64,000 nucleotides of DNA from positions 12,622-76,621 of the forward strand of contig CAXMOW010000004.1 of assembly GCA_964195235.1 (NCBI GenBank), given 5' to 3'. The translations under genes were made by a program, and so were the position numbers. Every line of letters starts with the position of its first letter. The stretch's first letter is position 1. Positions 13,573 to 54,039 of the stretch are shown one piece after another. The notes under the pieces are model-generated. The model was not told the origin of the DNA. It was given only the letters and a program-made list of their open reading frames with translations, and ran no database searches. The DNA comes from an uncultured Acidimicrobiia bacterium. Lineage in GTDB: Bacteria; Actinomycetota; Acidimicrobiia; Spongiisociales; ZC4RG35.

Positions 13573-14595
13573 GTGACAGACATTCGACTCACGGGATACA
13601 GCCACGGCGCTGGCTGAGGCTGCAAACTCGGCCCGGCCGAGCTGGCTCAGGTTCTGAGCCCCGTTCAATCACATCCTTCCACCACCCATCCTGATCTCCT
13701 CGTCGGAATCGGCACGGGCGACGACGCCGGCGTGTACTCGCTGGGAGACGGACGCGCCCTGATCCAGACAATCGATGTGTTCGCGCCTGTGGTCGACTCC
13801 GCCCGGGATTGGGGTCGCATCGCCGCCGCCAACGCGTTGAGCGATGTGTACGCGATGGGTGCCGAGCCGCTTACCGCCTTGCAATATCTTGCATGGCCAA
13901 GAGACGAATTGCCGCTCGAATTGGCATCGGAAGTGATTATCGGTGGGATGGATGTCATGGCCGACGCCGGTTGCACGGTTGTCGGCGGTCACTCAATCGA
14001 CGGTCCCGAGCCCCACTACGGGTTTGCGTTGACCGGCCTGGCTCCGGTCAACGGGATTCTCACCAATGCCGGCGGCCGACCTGGAGATATCCTTGTACTG
14101 ACTAAACCTCTAGGCATGGGGATCATCGCCACCGCCATCAAACGAGCTCGTTGCTCTCCCGAATTGGAAGCCGAAGCTGTGCGTTGGATGAGTCGGTTGA
14201 ATCGTGAAGCGGGTGTCGCCGCCGCAGACTTTGGAGCAAACGCTGTGACTGATGTCACCGGTTTTGGCTTGCTGGGGCATCTCCGCGAGATGTGCGAGGC
14301 GTCGGGGGTCGGCGCCGAGATCGACTTCGAGCGGGTGCCGATTCTGTCCGGCACATCTGAATTGCTGGCTGCGGGGATGTGGCCTGGCGGTTCGAGTCGC
14401 AATCTGGTGGCAGTGATAGAAGACGTGGTCAGCGAGCGGGACGTCGAGGAGATCAAACTTCTGGCCGACGCCCAGACAAGTGGGGGATTGCTAGTGGCGT
14501 TGCCCGCTGACGGAGTCGATCGATACGTCGAGATCGTTGACGGTGCTGCGGCTATTGGCTCCCTCACTTCTGAGAAGTCGCTCCAGGTGGTTTAA
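13573..14595 (+). CDS. selD: selenide, water dikinase (selenophosphate synthetase), selenocysteine-containing (TGA at 13615-13617)
   Basis: From GTG 13573 the frame reads VTDIRLTGYSHGAG-TGA-GCKLGPAELAQVL and continues in frame into track ORF 13732-14595. E. coli SelD reads IRLTQYSHGAGCGCK at this site (from memory). Sec/Cys at this position is well known. Confidence 0.85.
13627..13660 (+). promoter_or_regulatory. candidate bacterial SECIS hairpins downstream of the selD UGA
   Basis: CTCGGC-CCG-GCCGAG (13627-13641) and GGCTCAG-GTT-CTGAGCC (13644-13660) are both perfect stems, 12-45 nt after the UGA. Confidence 0.45.
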
Positions 14596-14603
14596 ATGAT
14601 CGG

Positions 14604-15026
14604 ATGAACTCCGATCAGCGTCTCGAAGTCATAGCCGACGCCCTTTCCATACCGGCCGCGCGTAGACACATCTTTCTCTGTGCAGATCAGACCAACCCCA
14701 AATGCGCCTCCCGTGAGATGACCAACGAACTCTGGCGTCATCTCAAGACGAGGCTGAAGACCGCCGAGCTCACTACGGCACCACCCAAGTGGCAAGGAGA
14801 CATGGACTCCAACCCCGATCCGGTCGAAGTGGGTAGTGGGTCAGTGCTCCGTTCAAAAGTCGATTGTCTTCGGATCTGCGAGCAAGGCGCGATCGCCGTG
14901 GTCTACCCGGAAGGCAGCTGGTATGCCGGACTCGACATCGAGAAGCTCGACAGGGTGATCGACGAGCATCTCATCGGAGGGGAACCAGTCGACGAGCTCA
15001 GTTTTGCTACGGGAGACCTTGCGTGA
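14604..15026 (+). CDS. thioredoxin-like [2Fe-2S] ferredoxin domain protein
   Basis: 140 aa with a four-Cys pattern (HIFLCADQTNPKC ... VDCLRIC) and AVVYPEGSWY. It starts 9 nt after selD. Confidence 0.5.
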   Translation: MNSDQRLEVIADALSIPAARRHIFLCADQTNPKCASREMTNELWRHLKTRLKTAELTTAPPKWQGDMDSNPDPVEVGSGSVLRSKVDCLRICEQGAIAVVYPEGSWYAGLDIEKLDRVIDEHLIGGEPVDELSFATGDLA

Positions 15027-15925
15027 TCAAGTGGCTGCGTTTGGCGGTTTGGGGCTTCCTTGGGTGGCGGTTCTTCGCTCCGACGATCCAACCGCAGTTC
15101 AAGCCGCCGCAGGTCCACCCCTGGCCACTCGCCGCGGCGACGGTCTTCGTGGGTGATGAGGAGTTCCTTGTCCGCCAGGCGGGCCCCAAGGCCGGCCGCC
15201 CGATTTTGCTCATTCACGGTCTCGGTGGGTCGTCGCTCGGCGAGTGGTATCTGATTGGTCAGAAGCTGGCTGCGAATCGCAGGGTCATCATGATTGACCA
15301 ACGCAGCCATGGTTTGTCTCCTGTTGCAACCGATCGTTTTGAGATAGAAGCCGTAGCCGACGACCTAGCGGGGGTCCTCGACGAGCTCGGTGTAGGTGCG
15401 GTCGATGTTGTCGGCTATTCGATGGGTGGGACTATCGCCCAGGCCTTTGCCCATCGCTATCGGGGCCGTGTTACCCGGCTTACGCTCATTGCGACCTTTG
15501 CGTTCCATCCGGATGAAATGAAGTGGCTGCGTCGTGTCGGAGCTCTGTTGACACGGGGTTGGGAGCGCATCACAGGCCTGGGAACACCCGAAGCTCGTAG
15601 TGGGTATCTGTTGGGTATGGGCGCAGTGAAGAGGGATCACGCCCGGTGGCTCTGGGAGGAGACCCATCGACGAGATCCTGACGCTGGGGCACAGGCCACA
15701 TTCGCTCTGCTCAGATTCGACTCCCGTTCCTGGATCGGCAGACTCGGCATTCCGACAATGGTGATCATTCCAACCGAAGATGTGTTGGTCCCGCCGGCAT
15801 GGCAGTACCAACTGGCTTCTCTCATTCCAGACACCCGAGTAGTAGAGATTATCGGTGCACGTCATGAAGTGGTGTGGACCCATCCCGACCGGGTACTCGA
15901 CGAACTTGCGTCTTTTCTGGACTAG
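15023..15925 (+). CDS. alpha/beta-fold hydrolase
   Basis: GTG at 15023 (GTGA overlap with the previous gene). It has an N-terminal TM helix, HGLGGS oxyanion region, GYSMGG nucleophile elbow and C-terminal GARHE. Confidence 0.8.
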   Translation: MIKWLRLAVWGFLGWRFFAPTIQPQFKPPQVHPWPLAAATVFVGDEEFLVRQAGPKAGRPILLIHGLGGSSLGEWYLIGQKLAANRRVIMIDQRSHGLSPVATDRFEIEAVADDLAGVLDELGVGAVDVVGYSMGGTIAQAFAHRYRGRVTRLTLIATFAFHPDEMKWLRRVGALLTRGWERITGLGTPEARSGYLLGMGAVKRDHARWLWEETHRRDPDAGAQATFALLRFDSRSWIGRLGIPTMVIIPTEDVLVPPAWQYQLASLIPDTRVVEIIGARHEVVWTHPDRVLDELASFLD

Positions 15926-15953
15926 TAAGCCTGTTCACAGCGGCGCACTGTGT

Positions 15954-17309
15954 ATGCCTCTGTGCACACGCAAGGTCGTGTGGGGTGTGGGCGTCACGGT
16001 CGTGTTTGTCGTCACGGCACCAAGAAGAGCCATGGCCCACGGTATCGGGGGCGGCCCGGATCTCGCAGTCCCCTTTCAGTATGTTGTCTTTGGCGTCGTC
16101 TTGGCCCTGATTGTGTCTTATGTGGCTCTCGCATTGTTGTGGCGCGAGCCGAGGTTGCAGGACGGCCCGCGGTATGAAGGACCGGGTCGTAAGGTCCGCA
16201 CTCGACCGATCCTGGCCGCCGCCGGGATTGTCGCCCTTCTTCTTGTCATCGGTCAGGTCGTCCCGGCGATCTTTGGATTCGACCGAGATCCCACTCGCCC
16301 AACAATCGCTCCAGTCTTGGTCTGGGTGGTGTTCTGGTTGGTGGTGCCCTTCGCTTCGGCTCTTATTGGGAGCTGGTACACCGACCTCAATCCCTGGCGG
16401 ACCCTTGCCAGCAGCGACATGGACAAAACGCACATTCTTCAGCGGTTTGGAGTGTGGCCGGCTGCAATCATTTTCATAGTGTTTGCCTGGTTCGAACTGG
16501 TCAGTCCCAATTCAGGAGACCCGGTCACTCTCGGTGTTGCCGCACTTGCATACACGGTGTTTCTCGCGATGGTGATGGCCGTCGCGGGTAGAGAAGCTGG
16601 TCTGGCTTCCTTCGATGCATTCACGCCATACAACCGTCTATTTTCTGCCATCTCTCCGCTTGGTCGCAGCGGCGAAGGCAGGCTCGTATGGCGGGGGTGG
16701 CTTCGGGCCCTTCCGGTGATCCCGGAGTGGCCAGGTCTCTGGGTATTTGTTGTCGCGATGATCGGCTCCGTCGCGTACGACGGAGCCTCCGGCACCGACT
16801 GGTTTGACAACGTCACCTTCGGTCTGCTGGGAAGCATCGGTGGTCAGACCGCACTTTTGGTCCTTTCGGTCGTCGTAGTGGGCATGGGATTTTGGCTTGC
16901 GTCATTTGTCACAGCAAAGCTCGGCAACAGCAGCGTCACCACGACCAAAGTGACCCAGCGCTTCGCACACACCCTGGTTCCTATTGCCCTTGCCTATGCC
17001 GTTGCTCACTACTTCACGTTGATCATCTTTGAGGGTCAGCAACTCTTTGCTGCGATCTCCGATCCCTTCGGTCTCGGATGGAACCTGTTCGGTACCGCGG
17101 ATCGTCGTGTCGACTTCTTCATTGTCGATAGCGAGCCGGTCTGGTATTTCCAGGTCGCTTCTATCGTTGGTGGAAGTTTGCTCGGGGTCGCCCTCGCCCA
17201 CGACCGGGCCCTCGCTGATTACGGCGGAGATGCGGTTCGCTCCCAGTACGCGATGCTTGTTCTGATGATTGGTCTCGCTGCTCTTGGTTTGACGATCCTG
17301 GCCGGCTGA
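15954..17309 (+). CDS. polytopic integral membrane protein, unknown function
   Basis: ATG at 15954. About 10 hydrophobic segments and a signal-like N-terminus ending AMAHG. It sits upstream of ctaB, where ctaA would be in Bacillus, but it has no COX15-like His pattern. Confidence 0.55.
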   Translation: MPLCTRKVVWGVGVTVVFVVTAPRRAMAHGIGGGPDLAVPFQYVVFGVVLALIVSYVALALLWREPRLQDGPRYEGPGRKVRTRPILAAAGIVALLLVIGQVVPAIFGFDRDPTRPTIAPVLVWVVFWLVVPFASALIGSWYTDLNPWRTLASSDMDKTHILQRFGVWPAAIIFIVFAWFELVSPNSGDPVTLGVAALAYTVFLAMVMAVAGREAGLASFDAFTPYNRLFSAISPLGRSGEGRLVWRGWLRALPVIPEWPGLWVFVVAMIGSVAYDGASGTDWFDNVTFGLLGSIGGQTALLVLSVVVVGMGFWLASFVTAKLGNSSVTTTKVTQRFAHTLVPIALAYAVAHYFTLIIFEGQQLFAAISDPFGLGWNLFGTADRRVDFFIVDSEPVWYFQVASIVGGSLLGVALAHDRALADYGGDAVRSQYAMLVLMIGLAALGLTILAG

Positions 17310-17461
17310 TGGAGGTCTTTGCCCACTATTGGGGAATAGACGAGGTCGGCATCTTCGTGATTCCGGCCGTGCTTGTCGTCGTGCTGCTTCGTGGGATCGA
17401 GAAGAGGGCGAGAGTGAAGAGAAAAGAAGATGAACCTCAAGAGACAAGTCATGCCGACTGA
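17309..17461 (+). CDS. 50-aa single-pass membrane protein (not in the ORF track)
   Basis: The ATG overlaps the stop of the previous gene (TGATG). Sequence: MEVFAHYWGIDEVGIFVIPAVLVVVLLRGIEKRARVKRKEDEPQETSHAD, with a hydrophobic core and a basic tail. Confidence 0.3.
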   Translation: MEVFAHYWGIDEVGIFVIPAVLVVVLLRGIEKRARVKRKEDEPQETSHAD

Positions 17462-18344
17462 GAACACAGTCTCCATTGAGACCACAAGCGCCCGGAGTCG
17501 CCTCGCGGCCTATGTCGCGTTGACAAAGCCACGGATCATCGAGCTTCTCCTGATCACAACCGTTCCGGCCATGGTCCTGGCCGCCGACGGATGGCCTGGC
17601 ACGTGGCTCGTCTTGACCACGCTCATCGGGGGCACGCTGTCGGCTGGCGGAGCCAACACCCTAAATAGCTATGTAGACCGCGACATAGATCAGATGATGA
17701 AGCGAACCCGGGGTCGACCACTCGCTTTGCATGAAGTGGCGCCACAGAGAGCATTGGTGTTCGGCATAGTTCTCGGTTTGGCCGGGTTCGTTTGGCTTTG
17801 GGTCACAACCAATCTTGTGGCAGCTTCGATTTCGACCGCAGCTCTGCTCTTTTACGTTTTCGTCTACACAATCGCCCTGAAGCGCATCACGGTTCAGAAC
17901 ATCGTCATCGGAGGTGCAGCCGGAGCGGCGCCAACGCTGGTTGGCTGGGCTGCGGTCACGGGTACCGTCTCGGTGCCGGCCTGGGTCCTCTTTTTCATCG
18001 TCTTCTATTGGACGCCGCCCCATTTCTGGGCTCTCGCGGTGCGATACAAAGACGACTATGAGACGGCCGGCGTACCCATGCTTCCCGTAGTCGCTGGAGT
18101 CGAGGCAACCACACGACGCATGCTTCTCTACACCGGGTTGATGGTCGGCGTGTCCCTGACGCTCGTCCCGCTCGGCGGGATGTCATGGATTTACCTGGTC
18201 GCCGCGCTTGGTCTCGGTGGCTGGTTCCTCTGGGACACGTGGCGAGTCTTTCGAGAGCCGGAGCGGGCAATGAAGCTGTTCACCACATCGACCGTGTACC
18301 TATCGGTGTTGTTCGCTGCGGTGATGTTGGACGTGTTGCTGTGA
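17451..18344 (+). CDS. ctaB: protoheme IX farnesyltransferase (heme O synthase)
   Basis: YVALTKPRIIELLL, NSYVDRDIDQMMKRTRGRP and WTPPHFWALA are UbiA/CyoE-family hallmarks. The start is probably ATG 17451. Confidence 0.9.
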   Translation: MPTENTVSIETTSARSRLAAYVALTKPRIIELLLITTVPAMVLAADGWPGTWLVLTTLIGGTLSAGGANTLNSYVDRDIDQMMKRTRGRPLALHEVAPQRALVFGIVLGLAGFVWLWVTTNLVAASISTAALLFYVFVYTIALKRITVQNIVIGGAAGAAPTLVGWAAVTGTVSVPAWVLFFIVFYWTPPHFWALAVRYKDDYETAGVPMLPVVAGVEATTRRMLLYTGLMVGVSLTLVPLGGMSWIYLVAALGLGGWFLWDTWRVFREPERAMKLFTTSTVYLSVLFAAVMLDVLL

Positions 18345-19171
18345 AGTGGCTCATCGCGATGTCGGCTCTCGCCGCACTTACTTTCGCCGCGTGTGGAAAT
18401 GACAAGGTCGACGGTTTTGCCCAGATCGCGTCGGCGAATGGCAGCGTTGGTGTGGGAGAACAACGTGTTCTGATCGCGATCATCGACCCGACGATGGATG
18501 AGTATCTAGCCGCTCCCGACGTGGCGGCGACAGCCACTCTCAGGGATCGCATCGGCTCACCGATCGGCGAGTACGAGGGCGATTTCATCTGGATCGTCCC
18601 CGAAGTGCGCGGCCTCTATGCGTTTCACATGGACATCCCGGGCCCTGGAACGTTTCAGATCACCGTTTCCAGTGATGCCTTCAATGACGCAGGTCCGGTC
18701 GGGCTGGTCACTGTGGAGGATCCCGGTGTAATCGTTGTCGGCAACGAAGCTCCTTTATCCGAGACGCGGACCACTGCTGACCACGACATCAACGACATCA
18801 CATCGGACCCGAATCCCGATCCTAAGTTTTATGAGATGAGCGTGGCTGACGCGGTGGTTGGCGGGCCGACCGCCATCGTCTTCGGAACGCCTGCATGGTG
18901 TACTTCTCAGGCCTGTGGTCCCTTGCTTGACCAGGTGAAGGCGCTTTCGACCAGATACGCCGATCTCAACTACGTCCACGTCGAGGTTTACGAAGACATC
19001 CACGTCAGCTCGTATGAGGAATTGACCTTGGTTCCGTCGGTCGTCGAGTGGGGCCTTCCCGCCGAGCCTTGGGTGTTCGTCACTGATGCAAATGGACTGG
19101 TGACGGCCAGTTTTGAAGGTGTCGCAAGTGAGACCGAATTGATCAACGCCTTTGCGGCCGTTTTGCCCTGA
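18341..19171 (+). CDS. two-domain lipoprotein with a C-terminal thioredoxin-fold domain (FGTPAWCTSQACGP)
   Basis: GTG at 18341 (GTGA overlap with ctaB), lipobox LTFAAC, and a C-terminal CxxxxC in a Trx-like context. It sits between ctaB and ctaC. Confidence 0.55.
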   Translation: MKWLIAMSALAALTFAACGNDKVDGFAQIASANGSVGVGEQRVLIAIIDPTMDEYLAAPDVAATATLRDRIGSPIGEYEGDFIWIVPEVRGLYAFHMDIPGPGTFQITVSSDAFNDAGPVGLVTVEDPGVIVVGNEAPLSETRTTADHDINDITSDPNPDPKFYEMSVADAVVGGPTAIVFGTPAWCTSQACGPLLDQVKALSTRYADLNYVHVEVYEDIHVSSYEELTLVPSVVEWGLPAEPWVFVTDANGLVTASFEGVASETELINAFAAVLP

Positions 19172-19231
19172 TCTGTCAGGTTTTGGTCGAAGTTGGTTGG
19201 AGGTTCTCAATCTCCGTATGATGCCGACCCG

Positions 19232-20305
19232 ATGGCCTGGCTCCGCCTCCTTCTAGCGCTACGTTTGTCGCGATTTGTCGCCCTCGCTGGCGTTGCCCTT
19301 CTACTTACGTCGTGCTCGCTCATCGAGGTCGATTCACCCCTGACCACGTTCGATCCAGCGGGTCCCAATGCCGATCGGATTGATGGCCTTTTCTGGATGG
19401 TGTTCTGGATTGCCACGGTTGTTTTCGTTCTGGTCATGGGTGCGCTGGTCGTGATCCTCGTTGTTTTCAGGGACCGCGACAAAGACTCGACCAAAGAACC
19501 AAAGCAACTTCACGGAAACGCCAAACTGGAAGTGATCTGGACAGTGATTCCGGCTCTGATCCTGGCCGCGATCGCAGTGCCCACCACCGCCTCTGTTTTC
19601 GACCTGACTGGGTGTGATCCCGCCTCGATGCGCGTCGAACTGACCGGTCATCAATGGTGGTTCGAATATCACTACCCGGACTACGACATCGATACCGCCA
19701 ACGTTCTGGTGATACCCGTGGATCAGGAGGTCTGTTTGGAGATGACCTCTGATGACGTCATTCACAACTTTTGGATTCCGGCCCTGATGGGGAAGCGCTA
19801 CGTCGTACCCGGTCAGATCACCCTGCTTCGAATGGAGGCGGATGAGACCGGCGAGTTCTGGGGCCACTGCGCTGAGTTCTGTGGCCTTTCTCACTCTCTA
19901 ATGCGGGCGCGGGCCCAAGTGATGGATGTGGGCGACTTCGACGCCTGGATCGAGGCCCAACAAGAGCCCGCGGCTCTCCCCGTTGAGGGCGACCCCGGCT
20001 ATGACGGGTACCAGCTATTCCTCAACAAAGGATGCGTGCAATGTCACACCGTGCGTTTCGACGACCCTGAATCCTCGAACATCATCGCCAGGGAGGCGTT
20101 CAACGGGCCCGATCTGACCCATTTCGCATCACGCAACGTGTTTGCCGGCGCCACCCTCCCCGGGGACGGGCAGTCGTATGCTGCCGCATTGACCGGATGG
20201 CTCGCCGATCCGCCCAACGTCAAGCCCGGGAGTTTCATGCCCAACCTGGCCTTGACCGCCCAGGAAATCGATTCGCTGATCGTCTGGCTGGAGGGCAACA
20301 AATGA
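19232..20305 (+). CDS. ctaC: cytochrome c oxidase subunit II with fused C-terminal cytochrome c domain (caa3 type)
   Basis: The CuA motif HCAEFCGLSHSLM and a C-terminal CVQCH heme-c site are present, with a lipobox-like LLLTSC near the N-terminus. Confidence 0.9.
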   Translation: MAWLRLLLALRLSRFVALAGVALLLTSCSLIEVDSPLTTFDPAGPNADRIDGLFWMVFWIATVVFVLVMGALVVILVVFRDRDKDSTKEPKQLHGNAKLEVIWTVIPALILAAIAVPTTASVFDLTGCDPASMRVELTGHQWWFEYHYPDYDIDTANVLVIPVDQEVCLEMTSDDVIHNFWIPALMGKRYVVPGQITLLRMEADETGEFWGHCAEFCGLSHSLMRARAQVMDVGDFDAWIEAQQEPAALPVEGDPGYDGYQLFLNKGCVQCHTVRFDDPESSNIIAREAFNGPDLTHFASRNVFAGATLPGDGQSYAAALTGWLADPPNVKPGSFMPNLALTAQEIDSLIVWLEGNK

Positions 20306-22326: not shown

Positions 22327-22942
22327 CGTATCCCACGACACAGCGGTCGATACCCACGACGAGCATGAGTCGACCGGGATCGACAACCGCAAGCTGGGGA
22401 TGTGGTTGTTCCTGAGTTCGGAGTTTCTGCTATTCGGCGCACTGATCTCGAATTATCTGCTCTATTCGAATCGTTCCGGCTTCGAAGGGGTCTATCCGGC
22501 TGAGATCTACGACATCCCATTCACTTCGGTCAGCTCGTTTGTCCTGCTGATGAGCTCACTGACGATGGTCCTGGCGCACAATGCGTTGAGTAGTGGCGAC
22601 CAAAACGGCACCCGCACCTGGCTCTTCGCAACGGCGGCATTGGGTGCGGTGTTCTTAGGCGGTCAGGTTTTCGAGTTCACCGAATTCATCGTCCAATTTG
22701 ATATGACCCTTTCGACCAACCCGGCAGCTTCGGCCTTCTACCTGCTTACCGGATTCCACGGCACTCACGTCGCGATAGGTGTGATCATGCTGCTGTCGTT
22801 GTGGGGCATCTCACGTAAACAGGGCGGTCTTTCCGAAAAACACGGTTTGAACCTCGAACTGGTCGGGCTCTATTGGCACTTTGTCGACATCATCTGGATT
22901 GTGATTTTCACCGTCGTCTATCTGCTCTCGGTCCAAACCTGA
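22319..22942 (+). CDS. ctaE: cytochrome c oxidase subunit III
   Basis: GMWLFLSSEFLLFGALI, GFHGTHVAIGV and YWHFVDIIWIVIF are subunit III hallmarks. Confidence 0.85.
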   Translation: MSDVSHDTAVDTHDEHESTGIDNRKLGMWLFLSSEFLLFGALISNYLLYSNRSGFEGVYPAEIYDIPFTSVSSFVLLMSSLTMVLAHNALSSGDQNGTRTWLFATAALGAVFLGGQVFEFTEFIVQFDMTLSTNPAASAFYLLTGFHGTHVAIGVIMLLSLWGISRKQGGLSEKHGLNLELVGLYWHFVDIIWIVIFTVVYLLSVQT

Positions 22943-23259
22943 TGACCGCTGAACAGCATCACGACGAACATCCCACACCGGCCCAATACTGGAAGATTGC
23001 GGCTCTCCTTGCGGTGCTAACCGCGATAGAAGTGGCGCTCTTCTACATCGATCAAGCCCTCGATCTACAGATCTTCAACGCCTTTGCACTGATCGGGCTG
23101 TCGACACTGAAATTCGTAATTGTGGTGGGTTGGTTCATGCATCTCCGTTATGAGAAGCCGATGCTGACTCGTTTCTTCACTGCCGGCTTCGTCCTTGCCG
23201 TCGGCCTTTACCTGGTCGTGCTGTCGGCGTTGGGGGTTGTCGCGATTCGGGGTGGTTAG
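22942..23259 (+). CDS. ctaF: small prokaryotic cytochrome oxidase subunit IV-like protein
   Basis: The ATG overlaps the ctaE stop. It is 105 aa with 3 TM helices and KFVIVVGWFMHLRYE, typical of the prokaryotic COX4 family. Confidence 0.65.
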   Translation: MTAEQHHDEHPTPAQYWKIAALLAVLTAIEVALFYIDQALDLQIFNAFALIGLSTLKFVIVVGWFMHLRYEKPMLTRFFTAGFVLAVGLYLVVLSALGVVAIRGG

Positions 23260-23262
23260 GTC

Positions 23263-39706: not shown

Positions 39707-40663
39707 TCAGCACTTCTCATGTACGCGGGGGTCGTAGGCCTTCTTGTCGCCCACTTCCCCGTCGATCTTGAGGACACCGTCGTAGTTGCTCATCATGTGG
39801 TCGACGATCGGGCGTGTGTAGGCGTACTGGGTGTCGGTGTCGACGTTCATCTTGATTACGCCGTAGCCAATGGCCTCATGAACTTCGTCGAGGTTCGATC
39901 CGCTGCCACCGTGGAACACGAGGAAATGCCGGGCATCGTCACCGAAGCGCTCGGCAACTGCGGCTTGTCCGTCCCGGAGAATCTTTGGGTCGAGCTCAAC
40001 CGCTCCAGGTTTGTAGACACCATGGACGTTGCCGAAAACGGCGGCAAGGAGATAGCGACCCCGGTTGAAGGTACCCAGAACCTCGGATACTCGCACCATG
40101 TCTTCGGGTGACGTGTACAGCTTCGACCGATCAACGTCTTCGTGATCAGTTGCGTCCTCGGTACCGCCGACGATCCCGATCTCCAACTCGAGGACGATGT
40201 CCAACTCGGCACATAGATCGAGTAGCTCGTCGGCAATAGCCAGGTTTTCTTCCATCGGAATCGACGAAGCGTCCAGCATGTGGCTCTGGAATATCGGATC
40301 TTGTCCGGCGGCACGCCGTTCGGCGCTCAAGGCGAGAAGAGGGCGGATAAACCCGTCAACTCGGTCTGCCGGGCAGTGGTCGGTGTGAAGGGCGATGTTG
40401 GCGGGATACTGGGGTGCCACTACCGCAGCGAACTCGGCTAAAGCATGGGCACCGAGGGCCATGTCCTTGTTCGATTGGCCTGAGGCGAATTCGCCGCCGC
40501 CATACGACACTTGGACAATCCCATCGGACTCGGCCTCGCTGAAACCCTCGAGCGCGGCGAGCATCGTCGTTGACGAAGTGACGTTGATTGCCGGCAGGGC
40601 GTAACCCTTGCTCCGTGCGGAGTCGAGCATCGCTTTGTATTTGTCAGGTGTGGCGATTGGCAC
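39707..40663 (-). CDS. fba: class II fructose-bisphosphate aldolase
   Basis: Probable GTG at 40663 (VPIATPDKYKAMLD...). ALPAINVTSS, LHTDHC, FGNVHGVYKPG and VFHGGSGS are present. Confidence 0.9.
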   Translation of the reverse strand: MPIATPDKYKAMLDSARSKGYALPAINVTSSTTMLAALEGFSEAESDGIVQVSYGGGEFASGQSNKDMALGAHALAEFAAVVAPQYPANIALHTDHCPADRVDGFIRPLLALSAERRAAGQDPIFQSHMLDASSIPMEENLAIADELLDLCAELDIVLELEIGIVGGTEDATDHEDVDRSKLYTSPEDMVRVSEVLGTFNRGRYLLAAVFGNVHGVYKPGAVELDPKILRDGQAAVAERFGDDARHFLVFHGGSGSNLDEVHEAIGYGVIKMNVDTDTQYAYTRPIVDHMMSNYDGVLKIDGEVGDKKAYDPRVHEKC

Positions 40664-43560: not shown

Positions 43561-43617
43561 CGGTGCTGTCTACGCGAATTCGGTAGGTTCGGTGTGACCG
43601 ATACGAAAGGATGTCTA

Positions 43618-45186
43618 ATGGCGATTTTCTCCAGTCCGTTACCCGATGTGGAGATCCCCACGTCGGCGATAACTCCCATGGTCTTTCGGCACACTGCGGA
43701 GCTGGGGGACAAGCCGGCCATCATCGACGGGACCTCAGGTCGCAGTTACACCTACGCAGAGCTTGCTGGAGCCACCAGCAAGGTCGCCGGTGGTTTGGCG
43801 GCTCGGGGCTTCGGATCAGGCGACGTACTTGCCATCCTTGCCCCCAACCTGCCCGAATACGCCATCGCCTTCCATGCAGCTGCAACAGTCGGCGGAGCGG
43901 TAACGACGATCAATCCGACCTATACGACCGAAGAGGTTCGCTTTCAGCTCGAAGACTCGGGCGCCAAGTTGTTGCTGACGATTCCGATGTTTCTCGACAC
44001 GGCTCGCGAAGCGGCAGCGGGAACGGACGTCGAAGAATTGTTCGTTTTGGGTGATGCAGACGGGGCGACATCCTTCTCCGAGCTATTGGCAGCCGAGCCT
44101 TTCACCGGGAATCCAGACATCAACCCTGATGAGGATGTTGTGGTTCTCCCCTACTCCTCCGGTACAACAGGGTTCCCCAAGGGTGTGATGCTCACGCACG
44201 CGAACCTGGCGGCAAACCTTGCACAATGTGCGCATTTCACTGCCCTCGATGAGGACGAGGTGATCGTGGCGGTTCTTCCTTTTTTTCACATCTACGGGAT
44301 GCAGATCCTCATGAACGGAGTGCTCTACAACGGAGCAACGACGGTGACGATGCCGAGGTTCGATCTGGCCGAGTTCCTGAAGATCGTCGAGGACTACAAG
44401 GTAACTCGTCTGTACGTCGTGCCGCCCATCATCCTGGCCTTGGCCAAGCATCCCATGATTGATCAATATGACCTGTCGAGCGTGAGGCAGATCTTCTCCG
44501 GTGCGGCCCCTCTTGGTGCCGAGGTCGAGGCGGAGGCCGCTGAGCGGGTTGGTGCCGAGGTGGTCCAAGGCTATGGACTCACCGAGACCAGTCCGGTGAC
44601 TCACGCCACACAACCCGGCAAGGCTCGTTCGGGATCCATTGGGTTTGTCATCTCAAACACAGAAGTGCGGGTTGTCGATCCAGAAAGTGGTGCCGACCTC
44701 GATGTTGGAGATGAGGGTGAGATCTGGATCAAGGGCCCACAGGTGATGCAGGGCTACCTGAACAACCCAGAAGCGACACGCTCCACCATCGATGCCGACG
44801 GGTGGCTTCACACTGGCGACCTCGGACGGGTAGACGAAGACGGCTATTGGTACATCACCGATCGGCTCAAGGAGCTGATCAAATACAAATGATTCCAGAT
44901 CGCACCAGCCGAGTGGGAGGCTTTACTCCTGACTCATCAATCGGTTGCAGATTCGGCCGTGATCCCCGTGCAGGACGTGGAGGCTGGGGAGATTCCCAAG
45001 GCTTACGTGGTGCTCAAGCCCGGACAGGAAACCAGCGCGGAAGAGCTCATGGGATACGTCTCGGGACAGGTGGCAACCTACAAACAGATCCGAGAGCTGG
45101 AATTCATCGACGAGATTCCGAGGTCTCTGTCCGGAAAGATCTTGCGAAGGGTGCTGCGTGACCGCGAGGGGGCAGCGGGCTCCTAG
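43618..45186 (+). CDS. AMP-dependent acyl-CoA ligase (4-coumarate-CoA ligase-like) interrupted by an in-frame TGA at 44890-44892 (pseudogene or recoding)
   Basis: Track ORFs 43594-44892 and 44959-45186 are in the same frame. YSSGTTGFPKGV, GYGLTE and [26 protein letters not shown] are followed by TGA and then [13 protein letters not shown]...GKILRR. The TGA sits where the family has Gly (KYKGFQ). Confidence 0.7.
44911..44935 (+). promoter_or_regulatory. hairpin 19 nt downstream of the acyl-CoA ligase in-frame TGA
   Basis: GAGTGGGAG-GCUUUA-CUCC(U)G-ACUC: 9 pairs including one G.U and one bulge. Its significance is not testable by eye. Confidence 0.2.
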
Positions 45187-45213
45187 TCCGCGATCCATGA
45201 CAGGCTCCGAGGG

Positions 45214-45813
45214 ATGAGGGTTCTTGTCTTGACTGTGGTGCTTGTGCTCTTAGTGGTGGCCTGAGCTGATGATGGGTCCTCCGAGCCCACTTCAGAACCA
45301 GGTGAGTTGACCACCGACGCGGTTGACACAATCGAAGCACCGGACACCACCGTTGCCTTGATGGGGCTAGAGGATCTGGGGCCGGCGAAAGGGTTGGCAA
45401 ATCTCGATGGTTTGCTTCAGACCGATATCACCTCCCTCGAAGAGCTCAGGGGCAAGGTTGTCGTGGTCCAGTTTTGGACGTTCGGTTGCATCAACTGCAA
45501 GAACACCCTTGCCAACCTCAGGGATCTTTACGACGAGCACGCTGGAAAGGAATTTGAGGTCGTTGGAGTTCATTCGCCTGAGTTCTCATACGAGGAGGAC
45601 CCGGCAGCAATTGGCGAGGCTGCGGTCGATCTGGGTGTCACTTGGCCAATCGCCCTGGATACGCGCAAGTTCAACTTTTTTCGCTGGCAAGGCGGACGCG
45701 CCTATTGGCCGCGCACATACGTGCTCGATCAGCAGGGTCACATCCGGTTCGATCACATCGGCGAGGGTGCCTATGACGAGCTGAACGAGACGGTCGCCGC
45801 TCTTCTCGGATGA
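45214..45813 (+). CDS. DipZ C-terminal/TlpA-like extracytoplasmic thioredoxin with signal peptide; in-frame TGA at 45262-45264 at the lipobox Cys position
   Basis: The ATG at 45214 gives MRVLVLTVVLVLLVVA-TGA-ADDGSSEPTSEPGE, in frame with track ORF 45307-45813. The Trx motif FWTFGCINC resembles the C-terminal domain of M. tuberculosis DipZ (FWTYSCINC, from memory). Confidence 0.6.
45266..45295 (+). promoter_or_regulatory. hairpin immediately downstream of the lipobox TGA
   Basis: CTGA-tga-TGGG-(tcctccgag)-CCCA-ct-TCAG: two 4-bp stems with an internal loop. Confidence 0.25.
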
Positions 45814-46370
45814 TCGCCCCTCTCTTCGAGGGCATCGCCCAGTCACTTCTTCCATGCTCATGGATCGTTGTCCTGCCAGCAGTTGCGATTGGCAGCACCA
45901 GGCGGATTCGGGTCATGGGTGTGTTCACCATTGCTGTGATGCTGGCGTCATGGATTGCGGTGTCGGGATGGTTCGCACCACCGGTTTGGGTGGCGGGCGT
46001 GGCGCTTCTGGCCGGGGCAGTGGTCTGGTGGCGATCGGGTCCCGCCGTGGTCCAAGCGGGCGCGGTTGGCGTTGGAGCAGCTTGGGCGTGGCAGCCGTGT
46101 GTCGGTGAGGAGCTCGGTCAGGTTCTCAACACTGCACAACACGATCCCTTTTCCGCCCTTCCCGGCCTGGCGGCATTCATTTTGGGTCTGATTTTGGTGG
46201 GCCTCGGTCTCGGTGCTGTTCTCGGCTTGATTATCCGTCGCTTCACAGACGGGAACTTGGACTGCCCGAGCGCGGTGATGGTTGGCTTGCTTGGGATGAT
46301 GATGGTTGTTGGCATTTATCCGTTGATTGCCTCGATCTTCGCCCGCTGGAGCACTGCTCTCTGGAGTTGA
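45810..46370 (+). CDS. CcdA/DsbD-like thiol-disulfide electron-transfer membrane protein (short form)
   Basis: ATGA overlap with the Trx gene. About 5-6 TM helices with two intramembrane PC motifs (SLLPCSW and WQPCVG). Confidence 0.5.
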   Translation: MIAPLFEGIAQSLLPCSWIVVLPAVAIGSTRRIRVMGVFTIAVMLASWIAVSGWFAPPVWVAGVALLAGAVVWWRSGPAVVQAGAVGVGAAWAWQPCVGEELGQVLNTAQHDPFSALPGLAAFILGLILVGLGLGAVLGLIIRRFTDGNLDCPSAVMVGLLGMMMVVGIYPLIASIFARWSTALWS

Positions 46371-46387
46371 GGATTCGAAAGTCGTTG

Positions 46388-46663
46388 TTAACTACGACCT
46401 CGTATCGCATCTGCCGAAACTCTGAGATCCCGCCAATCGGCTACCGCAAGGCGAGCTGCCCGAATCAACCCATCAAGCGTTCCCCCACACACCACGAGCA
46501 TGTCATCGATGACTTCCTCGGAAGGGGAGATCTCTTCATAGACGTCATGCCATGCGAGTTCGGTGAGTTCAATAAGATCGAGGGCTGGCTTCGTTTTCTC
46601 ACCGAAGACCGCGTGAACCCTTGCTTCCCGATGTTCTCTTCGATTGGCACGTCCTACCGGCAC
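46388..46663 (-). CDS. hypothetical protein
   Basis: 91-aa ORF downstream of the M20 peptidase. I recognise no family. Confidence 0.35.
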   Translation of the reverse strand: MPVGRANRREHREARVHAVFGEKTKPALDLIELTELAWHDVYEEISPSEEVIDDMLVVCGGTLDGLIRAARLAVADWRDLRVSADAIRGRS

Positions 46664-46668
46664 GGCTG

Positions 46669-48009: not shown

Positions 48010-48040
48010 CCGACGAGGGTACCGGGGTCCCTGACTACCC

Positions 48041-48781
48041 GTGATTTCGGACTTGCACCAATATGGGCCTGTGCTGAGGTTCAACCTGTTCCGGATTCCG
48101 ATCACCGTCAGGGGTTCGTTCCTGGTGATCGCCGCCCTGCTCGGCTTCAGCGGGATCCGTGATCCGATGCTGATTGCGGCATGGGTGGCGATCGTTTTCG
48201 TCTCGATTCTGATCCATGAGTTCGGGCACGCATTCACAGCTCGTTGGCTCGGAGCTGAGGTGGCCATCGAGCTCAATGGGATCGGCGGTCTGACCAGGTG
48301 GTCCGTGCCGGCCTCGGAGTTCGGTCCTGGGCGCAGAGCGCTGGTCGCTTTCTCAGGTTCAGCTGTTGGTGTTGTCTTTGGGGGGATTGTCTGGGTTGTC
48401 GCGGCCCAATTCGGACCATATTCAGGGCCGACAGCGTTTGTGATCAGCAGGTTGATCTTTGTGAACGTTTTCTGGGGGTTGTTGAATTGGCTGCCAATTC
48501 GACCGCTCGACGGTGGGCATCTTTTTGAGGCGCTGCTGGAGAAGATTGCACCGAATCGCGCTGATTCCGTTGCCCGCGTTGTTTTCACGGTCACCGCGGC
48601 CGCGGCTCTCATTGCGGCGATCCGGTTTCAGTTGATTTTCATCGCGCTGATTTCTGGGTGGCTGCTGCTGTCTGAGTTCAACATCAGGAGGACACCTCAG
48701 CCGAGGGCGCCGATTCCACCCTTGACCTATGACCAATCGGAAGCGGACATCGTGGACGTGGATCCGGAGCCGGACCAGTAG
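48041..48781 (+). CDS. M50 (site-2 protease) family metalloprotease
   Basis: ILIHEFGHAFTARWLG is the HExxH in a TM helix, with NWLPIRPLDGGH as the second motif. Confidence 0.75.
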   Translation: MISDLHQYGPVLRFNLFRIPITVRGSFLVIAALLGFSGIRDPMLIAAWVAIVFVSILIHEFGHAFTARWLGAEVAIELNGIGGLTRWSVPASEFGPGRRALVAFSGSAVGVVFGGIVWVVAAQFGPYSGPTAFVISRLIFVNVFWGLLNWLPIRPLDGGHLFEALLEKIAPNRADSVARVVFTVTAAAALIAAIRFQLIFIALISGWLLLSEFNIRRTPQPRAPIPPLTYDQSEADIVDVDPEPDQ

Positions 48782-48790
48782 ATTCCGATT

Positions 48791-50017
48791 GTGGATTTCG
48801 CATACAGCCAGAAAGTCGAGGAGTTGCGTGGCCGGTTATCCGCCTTTATGGACAGTCACATATATCCAGCCGAGCCGGTATATCGATCCCAGATGGAGGG
48901 GGCCGGCGACCCTCATCACCATCCGCAGGTGCTCGAAGACCTCAAACGAGAGGCACGAAGCCAAGGTCTCTGGAACCTGTTTCTCCCCGATACCGAGCAT
49001 GGGGGCGGTCTCAGTGTTCTCGAATATGCGCCGCTCGCCGAGATCACTGGGCGCAGCCCCGAGCTTGCTCCTGAGGCGATCAACTGCTCGGCGCCCGACA
49101 CCGGGAATATGGAAATTCTCCACATGTTCGGCACCCCAGAACAGAAGGGGCAGTGGCTCGAACCGCTACTCGAAGGTGAGATCCGATCCTGTTTCTCGAT
49201 GACGGAGCCGGACGTGGCAAGTTCTGACGCGACCAACATCCGGACGATGATTCGGCGCGATGGTGACCACTATGTGATCACCGGACGCAAGTGGTTCAGC
49301 TCGGGTGCGGCATCTTCTCGTTGCAAGATGTCAATCGTGATGGGTATCACCAATTCCGCGGCCGACAAACATCGGATGCAGTCGATGATCATCACCCCTC
49401 TCGACGCACCGGGTGTGACGATTGAGAGGGAGCCCGAGGTCTTTGGGTATCAGGACCGCGGTGGGCATCCCCAGATCCACTTTGACCAGGTCCGGGTTCC
49501 GGCGGCAAACATTCTTGGCGAGGAAGGCGGGGGGTTCGCTATCGCCCAGGCCCGTCTTGGTCCAGGGAGAATTCACCACTGCATGAGGGCGATTGGTGCT
49601 GCGGAGCGATGTCTTGACTTGATGATCCAGCGGTCGAAGTCCCGGGTTGCGTTTGGGAAGCCACTCGCAGACCAGGGTGTGATCCAGGAGTGGATCGCCA
49701 ACACAAGGATTGAGATCGAGCAGGCACGCCTTCTCGTCCTGAAGACGGCTTGGATGATCGACAACGTGGGCACCAAGGCCGCACGCACAGAAATTTCTGC
49801 GATCAAAGTGGTGGCCCCCAACCTTCTCACCGGTGTCGCTGATCGTGCGATGCAGCTATTCGGCGCTGCCGGATTCACCGATGATTGGCCTCTTGCCCGG
49901 TTCTACTCGATGGGTCGATGGCTTCGTATGGCCGATGGTCCCGATGAGGTGCATCGTCGCTCGGTGGCTCGTGCCGAGTTGGGGCGTCTAGATGCCGGCG
50001 CCGAGTTCAGGTTCTAG
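48791..50017 (+). CDS. acyl-CoA dehydrogenase
   Basis: [22 protein letters not shown] and a C-terminal ADGPDEVH region. 408 aa. Confidence 0.9.
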
Positions 50018-50027
50018 CGAGCCGACT

Positions 50028-50065
50028 CTCTCGTTGCTATAGCAAGAGGTAGCGTTTTTCGCTAC
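50028..50065 (+). terminator. tandem hairpins after the acyl-CoA dehydrogenase stop
   Basis: The TTGCTATAGCAA palindrome has extended arms and is followed by GTAGCG-TTTTT-CGCTAC. Confidence 0.4.
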
Positions 50066-50196
50066 GCGGTGCACACCAAACTCAGGACAGATGCGTAATC
50101 ACCGAATGCCTCATAGTGAATTCGGGCAAGTTCTGACTGGCAATAAGGGATGGGAACGAAATTCCTTGATTCTGCGTTTACCTGGTTCAACTCATT

Positions 50197-50469
50197 ATGG
50201 CATCAGTGATAGATCTGACAGTTACACCGTGGAGGGAAGCGGCGGCCTGTCTTGAAGTTACAGAGCAGGTCAACTTCTTCCCCAACAGAGAAGATTTCCT
50301 CGGAATCGCCAAGGCAAAGGCCGTGTGCGCCAGTTGCCCAGTCGCCGACGAGTGTCTCAGTTGGGCGATTGAGTCCAATCAGACCGAAGGCATCTGGGGC
50401 GGGCAGACATCAAAAGAGCGCAGACGCATCAGAAGGCATTGGATCGAGGAGATCAAGAAAGCCAGCTAA
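50197..50469 (+). CDS. WhiB-family (Wbl) transcriptional regulator
   Basis: Four-Cys pattern C-X25-CASC-X5-C, a GIWGG turn and a basic tail (KERRRIRR). It follows a long AT-richer leader of about 180 nt. Confidence 0.85.
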   Translation: MASVIDLTVTPWREAAACLEVTEQVNFFPNREDFLGIAKAKAVCASCPVADECLSWAIESNQTEGIWGGQTSKERRRIRRHWIEEIKKAS

Positions 50470-51461
50470 TTCCGTTCGGCCGGTTCGTCCTGATCCGGCC
50501 CGGTTTCGGCCGCGATGTTGACCAGCGCGTCTCCGAGGTTGACCAGCGGACGCAGAGTCCTGGCGATTACCCAGCCGGTTTCGGTTGCCTTCACGCGGGT
50601 CGGTTTTGCTCCAAACGCATCTGAGATCGAAGCAACCGGGTCGCCCTTCTCAACGTAGTCGCCGAGGCGGACGGGGACTTCAGCGAGGCCCCCTCGACGT
50701 GCTCGTACCCATCTGGTCCGCCGGATCACCCGAGTCGGTCTCGCCCGAGGAAGACGGGCTTCGATCATCTTCATTGACCTCAGAGTACGGAGCACTCCAT
50801 TGACTCCGGCTTTGATTGCGCGGTCGTTGAAGCGGTGCGCCTCACCCGCTTCGTACACCAGGACTGTTGCTCCCAGATCGGTCGCCGCTTGTCGCAACGA
50901 TCCACGTCTCTCCCGAGCGTGAATGGTGAATGGCGCGGCAAATGCCTTGGCCAGTCGAAGTGTGCTCTTGTCGTCGACGTCGGCGCGGATCTGTGGGACG
51001 TTGGTGCGGTGATTGGTCGCAGTGTGCAAGTCGATACCGACCGAGCACTGACTCACGACTTCTGAGATGAATAGGTGGGCGAGACGCGATGCGGTCGAGC
51101 CCCGCTTTGAGCCGGGGAACGCACGATTGAGATCCCGGCGGTCTGGCATATATCTCGACTCGATCATGAATCCGAGGGGGTTGACGATGGGCGCGGCGAT
51201 CACCGCACCGCGGAGGTTCTTGGCGTCGAGCTCGCCCAGAACTCGCCGGACGATCTCGATTCCATTGAGTTCGTCGCCATGGATTGCTGCCGATAGCCAG
51301 ACGTGCGGACCCGAAGATCGTCCGTTGATCACGGCGACCGGCATGGTCTCTTCCGAACCCGTGGCAACTTTGGCGAAGGGAAGCTCAATACGCCTCTTTC
51401 GCCCTGGCTGGACTGTTACTCCGCCGACTGTGATGTCCTCGTTCCGCTTTGAATCAGGCAT
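50466..51461 (-). CDS. succinylglutamate desuccinylase/aspartoacylase (AstE/AspA) family zinc hydrolase
   Basis: ATG at 51461. [11 protein letters not shown] (zinc His/Glu motif) and IDLHTA. It overlaps the rimK stop by 8 nt. Confidence 0.75.
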
Positions 51462-52329
51462 CGATGCTGTCCTCGATGTGAGTAATGATCGCCCCAGCGA
51501 TGTCGACTCCGCTGGCGCCTTCGATTCCCTCGAGTCCAGGAGAGGAGTTGATCTCCAGGACCATCGGGCCATCGTGGGATTGGATCAGATCTACACCAGC
51601 GACATTCAGATCCATAGCCTTGGCTGCACGGAGGGCCGTGGCTCGCTGATTTGGTGTCAACTCGATCGTTTCCGCCCTACCGCCCCGGTGCAGATTTGAG
51701 CGAAACTCGCCCGGAGGTCCCTGCCGACGCATCGCAGCCACAACCTCACCACCTACGATGAGCGCCCGAATGTCCGCCCCATCGGCTTCCGCGATGAATT
51801 GCTGGACCAAGAAGTTGGCATCGAGCTGTCGAAAAGCACTGATCACCGATTCGGCAGCCTTTTGTGTTTCGGCAAGAACGACACCGACGCCTTGTGTTCC
51901 TTCAAGGAGTTTGACCACCACTGGTGGACCACCAACCACCTCGAGGATTCCGTTGATGTCCTGGGATTCGTGAGCGAAGCTGGTTGTTGGGAGTCCGACG
52001 CCTGCACGAGACAGCAGTTGCATCGAGCGCAGCTTGTCCCTCGATCGGCTGATTCCGTCGGAGTTGTTCAGGGTGTAGACGTCGGCCATCTCGAATTGTC
52101 TCACCACGGCGGCGCCGTAAAACGTGTAGGTAGCCCCGATCCGGGGGATCACTGCATCGGGCCTGACCTCATCGCCGCGAAACAGAACCTTGGGACGACG
52201 AGCCGTGATGTCCATGTAACAGCGGAGGTAGTCGACCACAGCTACCTCATGGCCGTGATCCAGCGCAGCCTGTTGTAGACGCATCGTTGAGTACAACGCG
52301 GCACTTCTTGAAAGGATGGCGATCTTCAC
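51454..52329 (-). CDS. rimK: RimK-family ATP-grasp alpha-L-glutamate ligase
   Basis: MKIAILSR..., [17 protein letters not shown] and [24 protein letters not shown]. Confidence 0.85.
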
Positions 52330-52420
52330 AAGCGGGTCATTCTGCCAGTTTCTGGTGGGGTTGGTAGCAAAGTCTGCTTTGCTCCCTTCTCCTTGTGGCT
52401 CCCCTCAGTAAATCTGATAT

Positions 52421-52449
52421 TTGACATATCAAGTTTCATCATCAATAAT
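52421..52449 (+). promoter_or_regulatory. near-consensus sigma-70-type promoter for hsp20 (TTGACA-N17-AATAAT)
   Basis: Read directly. The -35 box lies inside the palindrome TGATAT-TTGAC-ATATCA (52415-52431). AGGAG at 52481 precedes the ATG at 52498. Confidence 0.5.
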
Positions 52450-52497
52450 GCTTAGGAAATGACAAATCGCTATCAGAAACAGGAGTGTTCTTCGATC

Positions 52498-52887
52498 ATG
52501 TTGCATCGTTTTGACCCCTTTACCGATTTCTACCGTCCGACCACCCGCCGTTCCAGTCTCGATGCCGATGTCTACCGTGTTGGTGACACCTTCTACGTCG
52601 AGATCGACGCCCCGGGTGTTCAACTCGACGACATCGATCTCGAACTCGAGAAACAGCACCTGACTATCACTGTCGAGCGTCGCGAACTCACCGATGACGA
52701 TCGCACAGACATTGTGCGGGGGCGTGCCACCGGCACCCTGCAACGTCGCTTCTTCCTTGGCGACTCCCTCGATGGTGAACAAGTCGAGGCAACCTATGAC
52801 AATGGCGTTCTCAAACTTGCCATACCAGTTATCGAGCAGGCCAAGTCCCGCAAGATCGCTATCGCAGCCAGCACCGGCAAGAACTAA
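52498..52887 (+). CDS. Hsp20/alpha-crystallin small heat-shock protein
   Basis: FDPFTDF N-terminus, DVYRVGDTFYVEIDAPGV, and the YDNGVLKLAIPV alpha-crystallin motif. Confidence 0.85.
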   Translation: MLHRFDPFTDFYRPTTRRSSLDADVYRVGDTFYVEIDAPGVQLDDIDLELEKQHLTITVERRELTDDDRTDIVRGRATGTLQRRFFLGDSLDGEQVEATYDNGVLKLAIPVIEQAKSRKIAIAASTGKN

Positions 52888-52911
52888 GACCGCCCCACCA
52901 GTCATCCCGAT

Positions 52912-52939
52912 AGAAACCTCGGCCTTTGCCGGGGTTTCT
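52912..52939 (+). terminator. hairpin terminator after hsp20
   Basis: AGAAACCUCGGC-CUUU-GCCGGGGUUUCU forms a stem of about 12 bp. The U-tract is weak. Confidence 0.5.
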
Positions 52940-53028
52940 CTCATGGGCACCGGCTTGGCAGGACCGATCTGACTGACCAACACCCGACTGGTCGGATTAG
53001 TGCTGCTCCCGGGTGTGTTGTTGAGAGA

Positions 53029-54039
53029 GTGAAGACTGCTTACGGGTTGATCGCCATCGCCTTTCTCACACTGGTTGCGTTCTGGCTGGTGGGATCAGAC
53101 GCAGATCAGATTCAGGTCGATGCAGGATCAATTGAGGCTCCTGATGACGCGTATGACCCGGTCAAGGCTGGTGAGCCGACACCCGAGGGTTATCGCCAGC
53201 TGCTCTTCCGAGATGCGATTCTTCCGGTGTACAACCCGACCTTCCGAAGTGTTTCTGCCACCGAATGGTCAGACGACACGCTGGTGATCGGAGTTGAGCT
53301 GGATGATGAGGCCAAGGCGTATCCGGTCCAGTTCCTCAATCGTCGCGAGATGGTCATTGATTGGATCGGAGGTTCGCCGATCTTGGTGAGTTGGTGACCA
53401 CTTTGCGCGACGGCGATGGTCCATCGTCGAGATTTGGGCGGAAAGATACTGGTCTTGGGTAACCAGGGTGCGTTGTGGGGAAACGCTATGACCTGGTGGG
53501 ATCACGACACCGGCTCGGTCTGGAGCCAGCCGCTGGGTGAGGCCATCATCGGACCTCGAAAAGGCGACCGTCTCGAATTGATGGCGTCACAACTGACTTC
53601 TTGGAAAACGTGGAGAACCGATCATCGCGAAACTCTCGCCTTGGACGCACCCGGCGGCGACACGAGGTTCCGGCTCAGCAATATGGCAATTGTCGTTGAC
53701 TTCTCTGACGAGGTAGCCGTCTACCCAGTTCCTGATCTGTCCATCCACGGGCCGGCCAATGACTTTGTCGCCGGTGTCCCGATAGCCGTGGTGCTGGACC
53801 CTGTTACGCCGGATAGGTGGCACGTGTTTCACCGACGTCTCGGAAGTCAGTTGCTCACGCTTGCTGTAGTGGATGGCGCCATCGTCGACAACGAGACGGG
53901 AACCACATGGGATCCAGCCAACGGAAGAGGCCTGAGCGGGCCACTGGAGGGAGAGATTCTCGACACACTCCCCGGTTTCACCTCCTATCAGTCGGATGCC
54001 CGTACGTTCTGGCCTGACGCCAAGTACTGGACGGGCTGA
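53029..54039 (+). CDS. DUF3179-family protein, candidate selenoprotein (TGA at 53395-53397 replaces the first Cys of the CPLC motif)
   Basis: Track ORFs 53029-53397 and 53416-54039 share a frame. Read-through gives ...AKAYPVQFLNRREMVIDWIGGSPILVSW-U-PLCATAMVHRRDLGGKILVLGNQGALWGNAMTWWDHDTGSVWSQ, which matches my recollection of the DUF3179 core (..TYCPLC...F..SG.L....M.D..T.S.W.Q). It has an N-terminal TM/signal helix. Confidence 0.7.
53408..53429 (+). promoter_or_regulatory. candidate SECIS hairpin for the DUF3179 UGA
   Basis: CGAC-ggc-GAU-GGUCC-AUC-GUCG. The apical loop contains GGU about 23 nt after the UGA. Confidence 0.4.

Follow-up and report, generated by a model that had tools for sequence, protein, structure and literature searches.

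Two of the genes treated here fall into selenoprotein families that have been described before. DUF3179 is listed as a UxxC/T selenoprotein (PMC9312934; PMC13188914, Table 1), and the passages on this family in the two papers trace its first prediction as a selenoprotein to the Olavius symbiont study (ref. 63/60). The form of selenide, water dikinase (SelD) that carries selenocysteine (Sec) is catalogued as UxxK (PMC13188914, Table 1); Sec-form SelD has also been reported from Actinomarinales, another order of Acidimicrobiia, and the same study describes full Sec machinery in a related order (bioRxiv 10.64898/2026.04.03.716425). Here, we compare these systems with a stretch of 64,000 nucleotides (nt) from an uncultured Acidimicrobiia bacterium (contig CAXMOW010000004.1), referred to below as the window. 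An initial annotation had pointed to four genes in the window, each with a single in-frame TGA: selD, an acyl-CoA ligase gene, a redoxin lipoprotein gene and a DUF3179 gene. The four codons (at 13615, 44890, 45262 and 53395, respectively) indeed proved to be in-frame, with homology running on in the same frame on either side, and Pfam and NCBIfam confirmed the families as AIRS/AIRS_C, AMP-binding plus AMP-binding_C, AhpC-TSA/Redoxin and DUF3179. It was also correct that three of the four stand at Cys positions, the fourth (ligase) being at a Gly position. We consider it very probable that the TGAs of SelD and DUF3179 are true Sec codons and that those of the ligase and redoxin genes are recent nonsense lesions.

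TGA codons of DUF3179 and SelD

The features of the DUF3179 gene are as follows.
53029 to 54039, plus strand: DUF3179 gene, predicted selenoprotein, membrane-anchored at its N-terminus, with the motif W-U-PLC (PF11376, 174.7 bits against a gathering cut-off of 27)
53395 to 53397, plus strand: predicted Sec codon of DUF3179 (UxxC motif), TGA in 79 of 80 Acidimicrobiia species genomes
53411 to 53429, plus strand: predicted selenocysteine insertion sequence (SECIS) hairpin of DUF3179, CGGCGAUG-GUC-CAUCGUCG, its loop 24 nt past the U of the UGA

In the window, the DUF3179 codon is embedded in PILVSW-TGA-PLCATAMVH. One scan of species-representative genomes with the window DUF3179 protein yielded 80 Acidimicrobiia loci with 51–73% amino acid (aa) identity, and the codon aligned with 53395 was TGA in all of them but one, always within the motif W-TGA-P-[LI]-C. 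The DUF3179 gene of L109 (L numbers denote loci fetched from other assemblies) likewise carries TGA. Paralogues with TGC (Cys) were found in L013 and L031, where the position of the TGA is occupied within W/Y-C-P-L-C. Sec at this position would be part of a UxxC motif for redox chemistry or metal binding, the protein being membrane-anchored and probably extracytoplasmic.

The hairpin behind the DUF3179 TGA comprises 18 nt (ACG GCG AUG GUC CAU CGC), with the stem CGGCGAUG/CAUCGCCG and the loop GUC, and is near-invariant among the loci. Third codon positions within the hairpin (nt 16–33) were 87–100% invariant, as against 32–76% in the flanking codons (n = 78), and the variation observed was limited to the third base of the loop and a C-to-U change that yields a G.U pair. 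Judged from the alignment, the frozen synonymous sites reflect selection at the RNA level, that is, a predicted SECIS element. The window protein thus resembles the known DUF3179 selenoprotein in its Pfam family (PF11376), its UxxC motif (W-U-P-L-C) and the occurrence of Cys-form paralogues. It differs in that the Sec form is near-universal in Acidimicrobiia and that the SECIS element is almost invariant. While this phyletic breadth may not have been described previously, it extends a known family and does not amount to a new kind of selenoprotein.

In some Acidimicrobiia, two DUF3179 genes lie less than 10 kb apart. Both are Sec forms in L020 (10370 and 17180), and one Sec-form plus one Cys-form gene occur in each of L013 (9122) and L031 (3308).

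For SelD, three features were assigned.
13573 to 14595, plus strand: selD (selenide, water dikinase), predicted Sec form, start codon approximate (TIGR00476, NF002098)
13615 to 13617, plus strand: predicted Sec codon of SelD (HGAG-U-GCK), TGA retained in L104, L105 and L106
13644 to 13660, plus strand: predicted apical SECIS hairpin of SelD, GGCUCAG-GUU-CUGAGCC, its loop 36 nt past the U of the UGA

The window reads YSHGAG-TGA-GCKLGP at this codon. With the TGA read as Cys, the protein scored 383.8 bits against TIGR00476 (cut-off 125) and 361.2 bits against NF002098 (cut-off 299). Among the 120 best SelD homologues, 45 were full-length proteins with HGAG-C-ACK, and the other 75 were N-terminally truncated gene calls. 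Three relatives with truncated calls (L104, L105 and L106; 66–81% protein identity) were compared at the DNA level. All three exhibited TGA at the position of the window TGA, in a syntenic arrangement of greA, selD, a ferredoxin-like gene and a hydrolase gene. The hairpin was unchanged in L104 and L105, and in L106 two substitutions turn Ser into Gly in the protein but leave the stem paired through U.G and G.U wobbles. In SelD, Sec would take the place of the catalytic Cys of the N-terminal loop. The window SelD agrees with the known Sec form in its family, in the position of Sec in the N-terminal HGAG-U-GCK loop and in the SECIS hairpin directly downstream; nothing in it is substantively different.

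Directly after selD lies a gene for a 140-aa protein (14604–15026) with weak similarity to 2Fe-2S ferredoxins and no Pfam match, followed by an alpha/beta hydrolase gene; this order is found in the window and in L104–L106. The ferredoxin-like protein may be functionally linked to selD.

A common hairpin type

According to the initial annotation, a hairpin follows each of the four TGAs. Hairpins are present in all four cases, but none of them folds significantly better than dinucleotide shuffles (z = –0.70 to –1.24). The presence of a hairpin alone does not discriminate between the sites, and folding z-scores from single sequences failed to separate real from false SECIS elements. The two validated elements are distinguished by their architecture: both consist of a perfect stem of at least 7 base pairs (bp; 7–8 bp), closed by a G-C pair around a GUY triloop. 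Only four G-C-closed GUY-triloop hairpins with a stem of at least 6 bp occur on both strands of the window (128 kb of sequence). Two of them are those located 24 and 36 nt past the TGAs of DUF3179 and SelD, respectively, and the other two have no TGA upstream. In the same search of both strands of the window, no GUY-triloop hairpin was detected behind the ligase or redoxin TGA.

In bacteria, SECIS elements are spaced 16–37 nt after the UGA, and the loop of the E. coli fdhF element lies about 23 nt past it. The window elements are likewise stem-loops that directly follow the UGA within the coding region and carry G-U in their apical loop. The GGUC of DUF3179 occupies positions +24 to +27, compared with +22 to +25 in fdhF, and the apical loop of SelD, at about 36 nt, lies farther from the UGA than that of fdhF but still inside the bacterial range. 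In contrast to fdhF, the window stems are perfect helices of 7–8 bp with a triloop and without a bulged U. The GUY-triloop hairpin would be the bacterial SECIS of this lineage, 24–36 nt downstream of the UGA in SelD and DUF3179; by analogy with fdhF, it would recruit SelB with Sec-tRNA(Sec), whereupon the UGA would be read as Sec. An Rfam scan of the window gave zero matches at gathering thresholds and a tRNA scan of the window no tRNAs, both of which are uninformative on bacterial SECIS elements.

TGA codons of the ligase and redoxin genes

Two features describe the ligase gene.
43618 to 45186, plus strand: 4-coumarate/acyl-CoA ligase family gene (AMP-binding plus AMP-binding_C) with a premature stop
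44890 to 44892, plus strand: GGA-to-TGA nonsense codon, strain-specific, replacing the Gly that is invariant in KYKGFQV (GGA in L081)

The comparison that bears most directly on this codon is with L081 (ENA ERZ27250139), an independent assembly retrieved by searching for exact matches to the protein of the neighbouring TrmL gene. Over 20.5 kb, its twin contig matches the window at 99.86% identity, with 27 substitutions. One of these affects position 44890, where L081 has G and hence GGA (Gly), and the ligase is called there as an intact protein of 522 aa. Gly was also found at this position in 18 of the 20 closest homologues (all 18 whose sequence reaches the motif), as well as in the solved structures of 4-coumarate-CoA ligase and luciferase. 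Neither a conserved TGA nor a Cys was thus observed at the position among the 18 homologues and the solved structures. As many as 13 of the 27 substitutions fall within 186 bp from the TGA onward (44890–45075, the 3′ end of the ligase gene), including a non-consensus L-to-W exchange in the conserved PAELE motif. The TGA, a V-to-I exchange and the L-to-W exchange were unique among the homologues seen, and some of the other clustered variants matched alleles of other relatives. This clustering suggests recombination or a chimeric consensus. In L109, which is about 90% identical, the segment corresponding to window positions 43623–45057 is cleanly deleted between trmL and the redoxin gene (L109:4575–4780), leaving the last ~40 ligase codons. 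Because L109 lost nearly the whole gene, the ligase is taken to be dispensable in the clade. The ligase TGA may be either a pseudogenising mutation or a consensus artefact.

The redoxin gene begins shortly downstream on the same strand.
45214 to 45813, plus strand: redoxin/TlpA-ResA-like lipoprotein gene (AhpC-TSA/Redoxin) with a premature stop at codon 17
45262 to 45264, plus strand: TGY-to-TGA nonsense codon in place of the lipobox Cys (LLVVA-C; TGC or TGT in relatives)

Relatives of this protein are lipoproteins of 197–222 aa. The hallmark of such proteins is the lipobox L-[AS]-[GA]-C after the signal peptide, with Cys +1 for diacylglyceryl attachment, and the window protein has TGA in place of this Cys (MRVLVLTVVLVLLVVA-TGA-ADDG). 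The lipobox TGA was found in the window and L081 only. The codon was TGC in L109 (~90% identical; LLVVA-C-ADDG) and TGT in L108 and L107, whose redoxin proteins are 81–82% identical, and in L084. A search of the 80 DUF3179 loci for orthologues by synteny returned distant ligase paralogues and one redoxin orthologue (L021), and the latter, like all more distant full-length relatives examined, exhibited the canonical lipobox Cys. Absence of the TGA from relatives at ~90% and 82–85% identity means that the codon lacks the conservation expected of a Sec codon. Furthermore, the downstream hairpin has the loop CCUCCGA, whose first positions lack a G (z = –0.70), and does not belong to the SECIS type of this lineage. 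Short redoxin calls of 139–162 aa were considered as further cases of a hidden lipobox TGA, but at the DNA level P0106, P0107 and P0117 turned out to be start-site miscalls with the lipobox Cys upstream.

A different set of lesions was observed in the redoxin gene of L084 (L084:1–650; JGI Ga0255056_10045452), namely three 1-nt frameshifts, a 54-nt repeat expansion (EAPDTT) and a TGG-to-TGA change. The adjoining genes for a membrane protein and an M20 peptidase are intact and free of frameshifts, and the truncation point of the redoxin was seen again in an independent ENA assembly (P0361, P0362). The frameshifts and the recurring truncation point therefore argue that the redoxin was inactivated independently in a sister lineage. 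A dN/dS of ~0.15–0.18 between the window and L084 redoxin genes suggests that both inactivations are recent.

Overlapping the redoxin stop (ATGA), a gene encodes a multi-pass membrane protein of 186 aa (45810–46370) without a Pfam or NCBIfam match. It directly follows the redoxin gene in six of six relatives with inspected gene calls, including L081 and L101–L103, and could partner the redoxin as a divergent CcdA/DsbD-like protein. A 265-bp stretch beyond it (46372–46636), which covers most of a 91-aa open reading frame (ORF) on the minus strand (46388–46663), is missing in L084; the gene calls of L081 and L109 include the ORF, which has no Pfam match.

Competing explanations and implications

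The window has a G+C content of ~58.5% and encodes rpoB/rpoC, NucS and a cytochrome oxidase cluster; its nearest relatives are Acidimicrobiia metagenome-assembled genomes throughout. In a crude map of ~65 genes, we counted 35 TGA, 16 TAG and 13 TAA stop codons, the four internal TGAs being included in the 35. TGA is the commonest ordinary terminator and ends about half of the genes, so a global reassignment of UGA (to Gly, Trp or Cys) is ruled out, and it is ruled out also because the sporadic TGAs stand for three different residues. No TAA or TAG interruption was found in homology-supported genes, the homology check covering part of the window. A codon-usage scan for in-frame stops with coding potential on either side was swamped by off-frame and antisense signals of rpoB and rpoC. 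A comparative scan of 1.25 Mb (7,620 stop-centred peptides, tblastn, codon-position filter) let antisense frames pass and yielded no clean rate of TGA versus TAA/TAG. It did reveal a sporadic TAG in a DUF3179 gene (L064:8575), at a conserved Trp encoded by TGG in 79 other genomes; whether a chance nonsense mutation or an error, it gives a rough idea of the background rate. A comparable case within the window is fba, the gene of class II fructose-bisphosphate aldolase (minus strand, ~39707–40663), where a 2-nt deletion at ~39725 (39720–39730) that is absent from L081 exchanges the last ~29 residues for VHEKC-stop. The deletion is due either to faulty assembly or to genuine damage to an essential gene. 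Sporadic stops and frameshifts thus belong to the background of these assemblies.

The initial annotation had read all four TGAs as Sec codons of an expanded selenoproteome with non-canonical members, which would put Sec in place of the Gly in the hinge of an ANL ligase and in lieu of the lipid-modified lipobox Cys. Its supports are that the four genes are otherwise intact with a hairpin 15–35 nt downstream, that the lipobox TGA occurs in two assemblies, and that the window hairpin behind the ligase TGA is stronger than that of the GGA allele. However, the ligase TGA is not even shared by the 99.86% twin, and the lipobox TGA is missing from the relatives at ~90% and 82–85%. Moreover, the ligase position is an invariant Gly rather than a Cys, the ligase and redoxin hairpins lack the G-GUY-C apex and fold no better than shuffles, and one close relative has deleted the ligase (L109) while in another the redoxin has decayed (L084). 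We therefore regard this reading as extremely improbable. UGA is very probably read as Sec in SelD and DUF3179, as claimed for the lineage, but this does not extend to the ligase and the redoxin. Random decay or assembly error, offered at the time as an alternative, explains these two TGAs better. It is likewise very improbable that the lipobox TGA in particular is decoded, be it as Sec or, by readthrough or by the Sec machinery, as Cys; if such decoding did take place, the redoxin lipoprotein would be anchored via a selenoether or thioether at a recoded UGA and, in the Sec case, would represent a very recent Cys-to-Sec switch at the strain level. Somewhat less remote, though still improbable, is that near-cognate tRNAs (Trp, Cys or Arg) partly read through the UGA of the redoxin gene, the ligase gene or both, in which case a share of functional full-length protein would continue to be produced and the genes would remain under selection. 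Past the TGA, the redoxin ORF is indeed intact, its end still overlapping the start codon of the membrane-protein gene behind it (ATGA), and its lesion is common to two assemblies. On the other hand, TGA ordinarily terminates about half of the window genes, no readthrough signal was identified, and the three sporadic TGAs of the clade replace Gly, Cys and Trp, as random nonsense mutations would.

A larger share of doubt attaches to the assembly itself. The ligase TGA, and possibly also the fba deletion, could be consensus or assembly artefacts of a mixed-strain metagenome, which we consider possible, if on balance unlikely. The twin L081 has GGA and an intact fba, the 13 clustered substitutions would fit a chimeric consensus of co-occurring alleles, and some of them are alleles of other relatives. 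Among the homologues seen, however, the TGA, V-to-I and L-to-W changes are confined to the window, and given the deletion in L109 it is just as conceivable that they arose as genuine mutations while the allele decayed. On our explanation of two Sec codons and two recent lesions, the GGA-to-TGA and TGY-to-TGA changes would be recent single-base events in genes dispensable in the clade, where they would end translation as early pseudogenising lesions; an error at the ligase TGA is possible alongside it. Ordinary nonsense mutations, nascent pseudogenes and consensus errors in metagenome-assembled genomes likewise show a single-base stop at a conserved residue in one strain-level lineage, a gene lost or decayed in close relatives and other lesions in the assembly. 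The window differs from such cases in that both lesions happen to be TGA near true Sec genes, giving an illusory pattern.

Several observations weigh against our explanation. Neither the 64-kb window nor any fetched locus revealed selA, selB or tRNA-Sec, and we infer Sec machinery beyond selD in this genome. Genomes of Actinomarina have about 5 Sec genes each. Apart from its TGA, which recurs in two independent assemblies, the redoxin gene is intact, so either the lesion must have arisen very recently or expression may persist in some form. Relative to L081, two substitutions in the window, at 44915 and 44919, create additional base pairs in the hairpin that follows the ligase TGA. We treat this strengthening as a coincidence, without proof, because the apical motif is missing and the TGA is unique to the window. 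In addition, contig sequences alone do not separate a real mutation from a consensus error.

The apparent high density of in-frame UGA thus arises because two ordinary selenoprotein genes happen to share a 64-kb window with two lesions. Both genuine Sec genes belong to known selenoprotein families, there is no evidence for an expanded selenoproteome in the lineage, and the finding opens no new biological question. It does show that an intact-looking gene followed by a hairpin is insufficient for a Sec call, conservation of the TGA in relatives being the decisive test. Within the window, Sec codons are separated from sporadic nonsense TGAs by a simple descriptor: a G-C-closed stem of at least 6 bp with a GUN triloop, 24–36 nt past the TGA. 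The expectation that gene callers would break such genes was borne out for SelD, redoxin and DUF3179, which are split or truncated in public calls. Gene callers break SelD and DUF3179 in public Acidimicrobiia assemblies, and annotations of the class therefore systematically miss two selenoproteins.

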